Assembly: GCA_964016885.1 (NCBI GenBank)
Contig: OZ024755.1
Location: forward strand, 26,598,001-26,662,000
Direction: 5' to 3'
Origin: Eledone cirrhosa
Lineage: Eukaryota
Length of the DNA: 64,000 nucleotides
The notes beneath the pieces are model-generated. The model was not told where the DNA came from, searched no databases, and saw nothing but the letters and a program-made list of their open reading frames with translations. Shown piece after piece: positions 33,549-33,592 of the stretch (the stretch's first letter is position 1; every line of letters starts with the position of its first letter). The translations under genes were made by a program, and so were the position numbers.

Positions 33549-33592
33549 ACCGTCTATGCATTTCAGGCTTAACTGGCCTTCGTCGGGACGGT
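33549..33592 (-). ncRNA. Type I hammerhead ribozyme motif, family H1 (U4C core variant)
   Basis: Minus strand: accgtc-CCGACGA-aggc cagttaa gcct-GAAA-tgc-ATA-gacggt. Perfect stems I and II, palindromic ATGCAT in stem III. Confidence 0.8.

Follow-up and report, generated by a model that had tools for sequence, protein, structure and literature searches.

Two type I hammerhead motifs in a 64,000-nt stretch of the Eledone cirrhosa genome (hereafter the window) depart from the canonical CUGANGA...GAAA...NUH core by a C at position 4. This substitution, U4C, raises the question of whether the two copies share a functional core variant or have decayed at the same position. The most probable answer treats them separately, and we give it a probability of about 0.75: the copy at 33549 is a fragment of a likely non-LTR retrozyme with a likely neutral U4C, and the source elements of subfamily B, to which the copy at 63621 belongs, likely carried U4C.

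Hammerhead motifs in the window

Three hammerheads of one repeat family, each within a longer fragment of its repeat unit, lie in the window:

33549..33592, minus strand: type I hammerhead of subfamily A with a probably private U4C and the stem III palindrome AUGCAU
33511..33608, minus strand: 98-nt subfamily A fragment with the hammerhead and most of extended helix I
63621..63664, plus strand: type I hammerhead of the older subfamily B, CAGUA loop class
63575..63695, plus strand: 121-nt subfamily B monomer fragment, sharing 79-89% identity with its best relatives in the genome
12211..12254, plus strand: subfamily C hammerhead, the third copy of the family, with a canonical CUGACGA core and an AUC triplet
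12183..12400, plus strand: subfamily C monomer fragment around this hammerhead, its 3' end mapped only to the end of the query

The minus strand from 33592 to 33549 reads ACCGTC, CCGACGA, AGGC, the loop cagttaa, GCCT, GAAA, TGC, ATA and GACGGT, exactly as the first-pass annotation had parsed it. C4 is at 33585, and cleavage is predicted after AUA, between 33555 and 33554. The surrounding 98-nt fragment is truncated on both sides and is 99% identical to many genomic copies. The plus-strand copy at 63621-63664 reads ACTGTC, CCGACGA, GAGC, the loop cagta, GCTC, GAAA, TATGC, ATA and GACAGT, with C4 at 63628. This C4 was likely inherited; decay private to this copy accounts for the C at position 7 and for the broken stem III palindrome. 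The stems of the copy at 12211-12254 are partly decayed. All family copies in the window are solo fragments and none is in tandem.

A strict type I descriptor finds the 33549 and 63621 sites in the window and has no hits in 200 dinucleotide shuffles. In the minimum free energy folds of both C4 copies, stems I and II are formed, the three-way junction is open at stem I, and stem III of the monomer is limited to 2 bp. The Rfam model Hammerhead_1 (RF00163) scores the 63621 copy below threshold (15.7 bits against a cut-off of 34, E 0.26) and finds no hammerhead in the 33549 copy or in its canonical sister copy L004. Since L004 goes unmatched, the model misses canonical copies of the family too. 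An Rfam scan of the whole window gave no hammerhead among the matches listed (150 of 197), all of which are microsatellite hairpins. Four sequencing runs of unrecorded kind over 33300-33900 have very high depth across the repeat, which is uninformative about the base at 33585.

A dispersed retrozyme-like repeat

The window hammerheads belong to a dispersed, non-coding, retrozyme-like repeat of about 330 nt with at least three subfamilies (A, B and C). Subfamily A is young; a first look gave 1103 candidates, and among the 40 of these that were scored, the top matches are 99% identical. The older subfamily B gave 295 first-look candidates, with best matches of 79-89% to the 63621 copy, and a genome search with the 12.2-kb copy gave 1841 for subfamily C. 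In natural tandem copies the unit measures 332, 336 and 340 nt, and its GC content is 0.43, 0.39 and 0.36, respectively. Like a non-LTR retrozyme, the unit is 150-450 nt long, has less than 45% GC, contains one type I hammerhead and is non-coding. Folded in silico as a circle, it is predicted to be more stable than 60 shuffles by z = -3.8 (A), -1.5 (B) and -4.5 (C).

Among 114 loci, 81 hold a solo copy, 9 a copy with a tandem partner and 27 a copy with an inverted partner. Each of the 29 inverted pairs is arranged head-to-head, and a long tandem array is absent from these loci of about 3 kb. The head-to-head and tandem layout matches the insertion pattern described for Penelope-like elements (PLEs) in an extract of PMC8557442. 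Tandem copies with two complete hammerheads occur in subfamily A (L012) and subfamily C (L178), and the 3' ends of subfamily A cluster at the junction of the unit with AT-rich repeats. A sub-lineage of A with an altered loop II letter (for example, L151-L153) accounts for 13 of the first 100 matches listed.

In L012, L004 and other copies, an exact octamer, ATGCAAAT, precedes core position 4 by about 60-110 nt. It is followed after about 40 nt by a TATA-like box directly before extended helix I. Both elements are present in 24/31 A, 7/13 B, 12/25 C and 9/13 clade D copies that retain the region, and they are a candidate internal promoter of the snRNA type. This arrangement may parallel that of newt satellite 2, a resemblance that the literature consulted did not confirm.

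Covariation of the stems

Stem I is ACCGUC/GACGGU in subfamily A, AUCGUC/GACGAU in C, ACUGUC/GACAGU in B and ACUGUC/GGCAGU, with a U-G wobble, in clade D, a group nested within B. Stem II is AGGC/GCCU in A, GAAC/GUUC in C, GAGC/GCUC in B and once again GAAC/GUUC in the D2 group of clade D. The compensatory differences in both stems that had been noted between the two C4 copies of the window are confirmed. Stem III is palindromic in every group, as AUGCAU, AUGCGCAU or AUACGUAU.

Across eight subfamily groups, all differences in stems I and II preserve pairing and no pair is broken at the group level. C3, G5, A6, G8, A9, GAAA and U16.1 are invariant, and core variation is confined to position 4 plus the variable positions 7 and 17. 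Over the whole alignment 95 of 268 columns vary, partly through misaligned A and C loops. Decay of a CpG could in principle mimic the compensation in stem I, and it is ruled out because B has TG in 79/86 copies and neither CG nor CA at this site. The pattern supports the earlier proposal that selection acted on the hammerhead fold in the source elements, as judged from the aligned copies, with few independent covariation events.

U4C in the young subfamilies

Subfamily A is canonical at the core. Among 361 copies that are exact at the other 34 letters of a 35-mer, position 4 is U in 350, C in 9 (the 33549 copy included) and A in 2. These nine C4 copies have different backgrounds and no other difference in common in an alignment of 65 A rows. 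At four loci (L014, L062, L065 and L066) the monomers adjoining C4 copies have U4.

Compared with flanking sites, U4C in subfamily A is about 3-fold enriched (9/359 versus 44/5544, p = 0.004), the single finding that speaks against a neutral mutation. A matched TpG site in stem II, counted in the same way, has 6 C, 3 A and 1 G beside 350 unchanged copies. Its T-to-C rate of 6/360 is similar to that of position 4 (9 versus 6, Fisher p = 0.60), and this matched control, which is one single site, alone removes the enrichment. The sequence pattern suggests that U4C at 33585 is likely a private, neutral chance mutation in a truncated copy. The first-pass annotation had read U4C as a functional variant rather than decay and had named rarity among homologues as evidence against this view; for the 33549 copy the reading fails because the C is rare in subfamily A (9/361) and stands at the level of the matched control. 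Subfamily C is also canonical at the core, with C4 in 1 of 39 aligned copies.

U4C in subfamily B and clade D

The same reading fares better for the lineage of the 63621 copy. The core that the annotation had called recurrent, CCGACGA, is present in both window copies, but its position 7 is normally U in subfamily B and is C in only 3/86 copies, and the third window copy has CTGACGA. The variant core of B is CCGAUGA, and the shared heptamer is partly a coincidence because B normally has U7. The 33549 and 63621 copies did not receive U4C from a common source.

Because C4 and G5 form a CpG, the history of C4 can be read from its decay. True CpG sites in B (11 sites, n = 816 cells) are now CG in 44%, TG in 23% and CA in 22% of cells, and true TpG sites (14 sites, n = 1039 cells) are CG in only 1.3% and CA in 0.5%. 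Counts at positions 4-5 (96 B copies, 12 of them unclassified) differ strongly between loop classes. Copies with a short loop II have TG in 22, CG in 1 and AG in 1, and those with a CAGAA loop have TG in 6, CG in 1 and other dinucleotides in 3. The CAGUA class, counted with its 63621 member, has CG in 5, CA in 2, TG in 8 and others in 3, and the CAU.A class has CG in 19, CA in 5, TG in 7 and AG in 1. CG and CA together against TG number 24 versus 7 in the CAU.A class and 2 versus 28 in the short and CAGAA classes combined (p = 1e-8).

Part of the B sample had been ranked by similarity to the 63621 copy, which itself has C4, and clade D was for this reason gathered with a pattern that lies wholly downstream of the core. 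Its 44 matches, less 2 segmental duplicates and 5 rows with a missing or foreign 5' part, leave 37 copies. The duplicates arise from three near-identical copies at 72.7-73.3 Mb of G000:C5 (L192, L205 and L206), likely a segmental triplication, which were counted once. In this set, collected blind to position 4, positions 4-5 are CG in 16, TG in 11, CA in 7 and other dinucleotides in 3. This is the pattern of pure CpG decay, and the clade D source would therefore have had CCGAUGA. By this evidence, the older subfamily to which the 63621 copy belongs likely carried U4C in its source elements. A separate U4A lineage also seemed conceivable at 4/12 copies and was rejected when the larger set gave 4/96, scattered on the tree.

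Order of changes in subfamily B

A rooted tree was built from 119 rows (103 B, with 8 of 53 A and 8 of 37 C as the outgroup), with positions 4-5 removed and without the short 63621 window copy. Short-loop U4 copies are basal in B, followed by the CAGAA, CAGUA and CAUUA classes with clade D nested last, on backbone nodes that are weak (80-90, the bootstrap not settled). Clade D itself (31 rows, support 99/94) is nested among the C4 classes. The C and U states require 20 changes on this tree compared with 25.3 in shuffles (as few in 14 of 1000), which is a modest signal. Non-CpG divergence, from samples biased by similarity, is 10% for the short-loop class, 7-8% for the other B classes, 6% for C and 4% for A, in loose agreement with the order on the tree. 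The tree and the divergences suggest that U4C originated within B and was handed down over several source elements.

Two further changes followed U4C. In clade D the stem III palindrome AUGCGCAU became the palindrome AUACGUAU by two non-CpG transitions. In D2 the third pair of stem II changed from G-C to A-U, a compensatory change that left the remaining core in place; across the 37 clade D copies this pair is A-U in 17, G-C in 15, mixed in 3 and other in 2. Each compensation is a single event that was amplified many times. C3, G5, A6, G8, A9 and GAAA are still the majority letters in D1 and D2. A graft from subfamily C was also considered as the origin of stem II in D2; it is unlikely, as the loop and core differ.

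Proposed mechanism

The repeat of about 330 nt is likely a non-LTR retrozyme mobilized by a Penelope-like element. Transcripts that span tandem units would cut themselves after AUA or AUC, probably as double hammerheads joined through the palindromic stem III. A double hammerhead is likely needed because the monomer forms just 2 bp in stem III; in such a dimer, the cut strand is served by the core of the partner. The cleaved monomers would circularize, and a PLE reverse transcriptase/endonuclease acting in trans may insert them beside AT-rich microsatellites.

In subfamily B, the C4 core probably still cleaved slowly, by analogy with a U4C variant of a viroid. Slow cleavage would have sufficed for selection to act on stems II and III during several rounds of amplification, after which spreading stopped. 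The compensatory changes that postdate U4C in copies that kept the rest of the core suggest continued cleavage in the C4 lineage, a reading favored because a monomer would have little use for a palindrome that survives a double change. The fuller proposal, that a retrozyme lineage used a dimer-cleaving CCGAUGA hammerhead over several source elements and evolved compensations in stems II and III along the way, has in our estimation slightly better than an even chance of being correct.

If it is correct, subfamily B provides a natural dated series for the rescue of a mutated "invariant" U-turn by dimerization or tertiary contacts. Hammerhead scans usually require CUGANGA, so genome surveys would miss such a lineage or score it as decay. 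Cleavage by the C4 core would mean that genomic type I ribozymes, and not just one viroid variant, tolerate a change at position 4 and that slow cleavage suffices for retrozyme spread. If the core does not cleave, such elements can spread without a cut of their own, which bears on the role of hammerheads in PLEs and retrozymes. The 33549 copy itself is an ordinary decayed fragment of a hammerhead family that is real and of a known kind.

Alternative explanations

One alternative, that U4C is a single functional core variant of the whole family inherited by both window copies, would explain why both have C4 and why the change exceeds the flanking rate in subfamily A. It is very improbable, and for the 33549 copy it is largely refuted already: subfamily A is overwhelmingly U4, its C4 copies lack a common marker and sit beside U4 monomers, the matched site mutates similarly, subfamily C is canonical, and A and B are separate clades that differ at position 7. 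A less remote alternative, still unlikely in our view, is that U4C abolished or nearly abolished cleavage in B. The lineage would then have spread through heterodimers cut by U4 partners or with no cut at all, its stems being kept for RNA shape or recognition by a helper. The partner's core does cut the strand in the double hammerhead (dimer scheme in PMC4209133), the U4 classes of B are similarly diverged (8-10%) and could have coexisted with C4 elements, and Naiad PLEs, which have no hammerhead, proliferate well according to the part of PMC8557442 consulted. However, the clade D palindrome pairs with itself whereas its pairing with the U4 classes sampled from B is incomplete, clade D compensated its own stem II, and the core letters other than position 4 are still the majority in D1 and D2. 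These observations are better accommodated by slow cleavage of the C4 core.

The repeat could also be the pseudo-LTR (pLTR) of an autonomous PLE, in which case the copies would be PLE ends truncated at the 5' side and not a retrozyme in its own right. In favor of this are the head-to-head copies and partial tandems whose 3' ends are fixed at AT-rich runs, and animal retrozymes reportedly derive from PLE pLTRs (10.64898/2026.07.22.740005, in extract). Nevertheless, long A copies have the tail of the previous unit, not an ORF, upstream of the hammerhead, and the 6-bp and 4-bp canonical stems are unlike the minimal hammerheads typical of metazoan PLEs in the extract of PMC4209133. Pfam searches of 60 of the 131 long ORFs in the loci matched only reverse transcriptase, endonuclease and PHD domains, with no ORF combining reverse transcriptase and GIY-YIG linked to the unit, and two translated RT-PHD ORFs resemble RTE-type LINEs. 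We consider this origin improbable and retain the retrozyme reading.

Comparison with known systems

A natural viroid variant with U4C has been described that is slow but viable. Its in vitro activity is considerably lower and infectivity is kept (an extract of PMC3088659, citing Ambros and Flores 1998), and the core substitution is the same as in B. The viroid example is one variant, whereas in B the change was fixed in retroelement sources over several amplifications and in a type I, dimer-type ribozyme. Core mutations in general have low activity (PMC3088659), as do mutations near the CUGA turn (PMC9901934), in the portions of these sources that bear on the point. We found no published account of U4C in a retroelement lineage; supplements and the PLE hammerhead variants of Lunse et al. 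might list it.

The animal non-LTR retrozymes of mussel, coral and axolotl, as presented in part of Cervera and de la Pena 2020 (PMC7229834), have in common with this family a type I hammerhead with a 6-bp stem I, a 4-bp stem II and a short palindromic stem III. They also have a non-coding unit of 150-450 nt with less than 45% GC. A self-paired circle is a further trait of theirs, for which the Eledone units have predicted folds of varying stability (z from -1.5 to -4.5). They differ in forming long arrays, the Eledone copies being mostly dispersed as solo, dimer or head-to-head insertions, and in the U4C of one lineage here. With PLE pLTR hammerheads, according to extracts of PMC4209133 and PMC8557442, the family has in common 5'-truncated, partial tandem and inverted insertions beside microsatellites, palindromic stems III for dimers and many compensatorily changed subfamilies; core variants (U3-A8) are known there as well. 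In contrast to them, the loci examined yielded no linked reverse transcriptase/endonuclease ORF, and the hammerhead geometry is canonical rather than minimal.

Other repeats in the window and the loci

C-terminal pieces of two different PLE-like ORFs lie beside family copies (L011:191-1378, plus strand; L067:241-1392, minus strand). Both contain GIY-YIG-like motifs by eye and have no Pfam match, and a first look at the genome gave 2341 candidates for the L011 element. Although these elements are possible helper families, a link between the L011 element and the hammerhead family was rejected: 19 other copies of that element have no family hammerhead nearby, so both pieces look like chance neighbors. 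An abundant LINE with a PHD-finger match directly after its reverse transcriptase domain also occurs in the loci (L055:1-1134, L060:1886-2968, L030 and L015) and is presumably RTE-like.

The window contains a second, unrelated hammerhead family on the plus strand:

36303-36380, plus strand: second-family hammerhead
45385-45445, plus strand: second-family hammerhead
49048-49095, plus strand: second-family hammerhead

These motifs have an AU-rich 8-bp stem I, a longer stem II and a palindrome-like stem III. After the core, which is CUGAUGA (CUGUUGA at 49056), comes an extra A, and the family resembles PLE-type hammerheads. A genome search with this family gave no match at all, the window copies included. 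Four mutually related fragments (14125-14189, 45517-45619, 49168-49271 and 63696-63800) lie beside (TA)n runs. At 28980-29191, a (TA)42 run is flanked by a perfect inverted repeat some 60 nt long, which is foldback or MITE-like.
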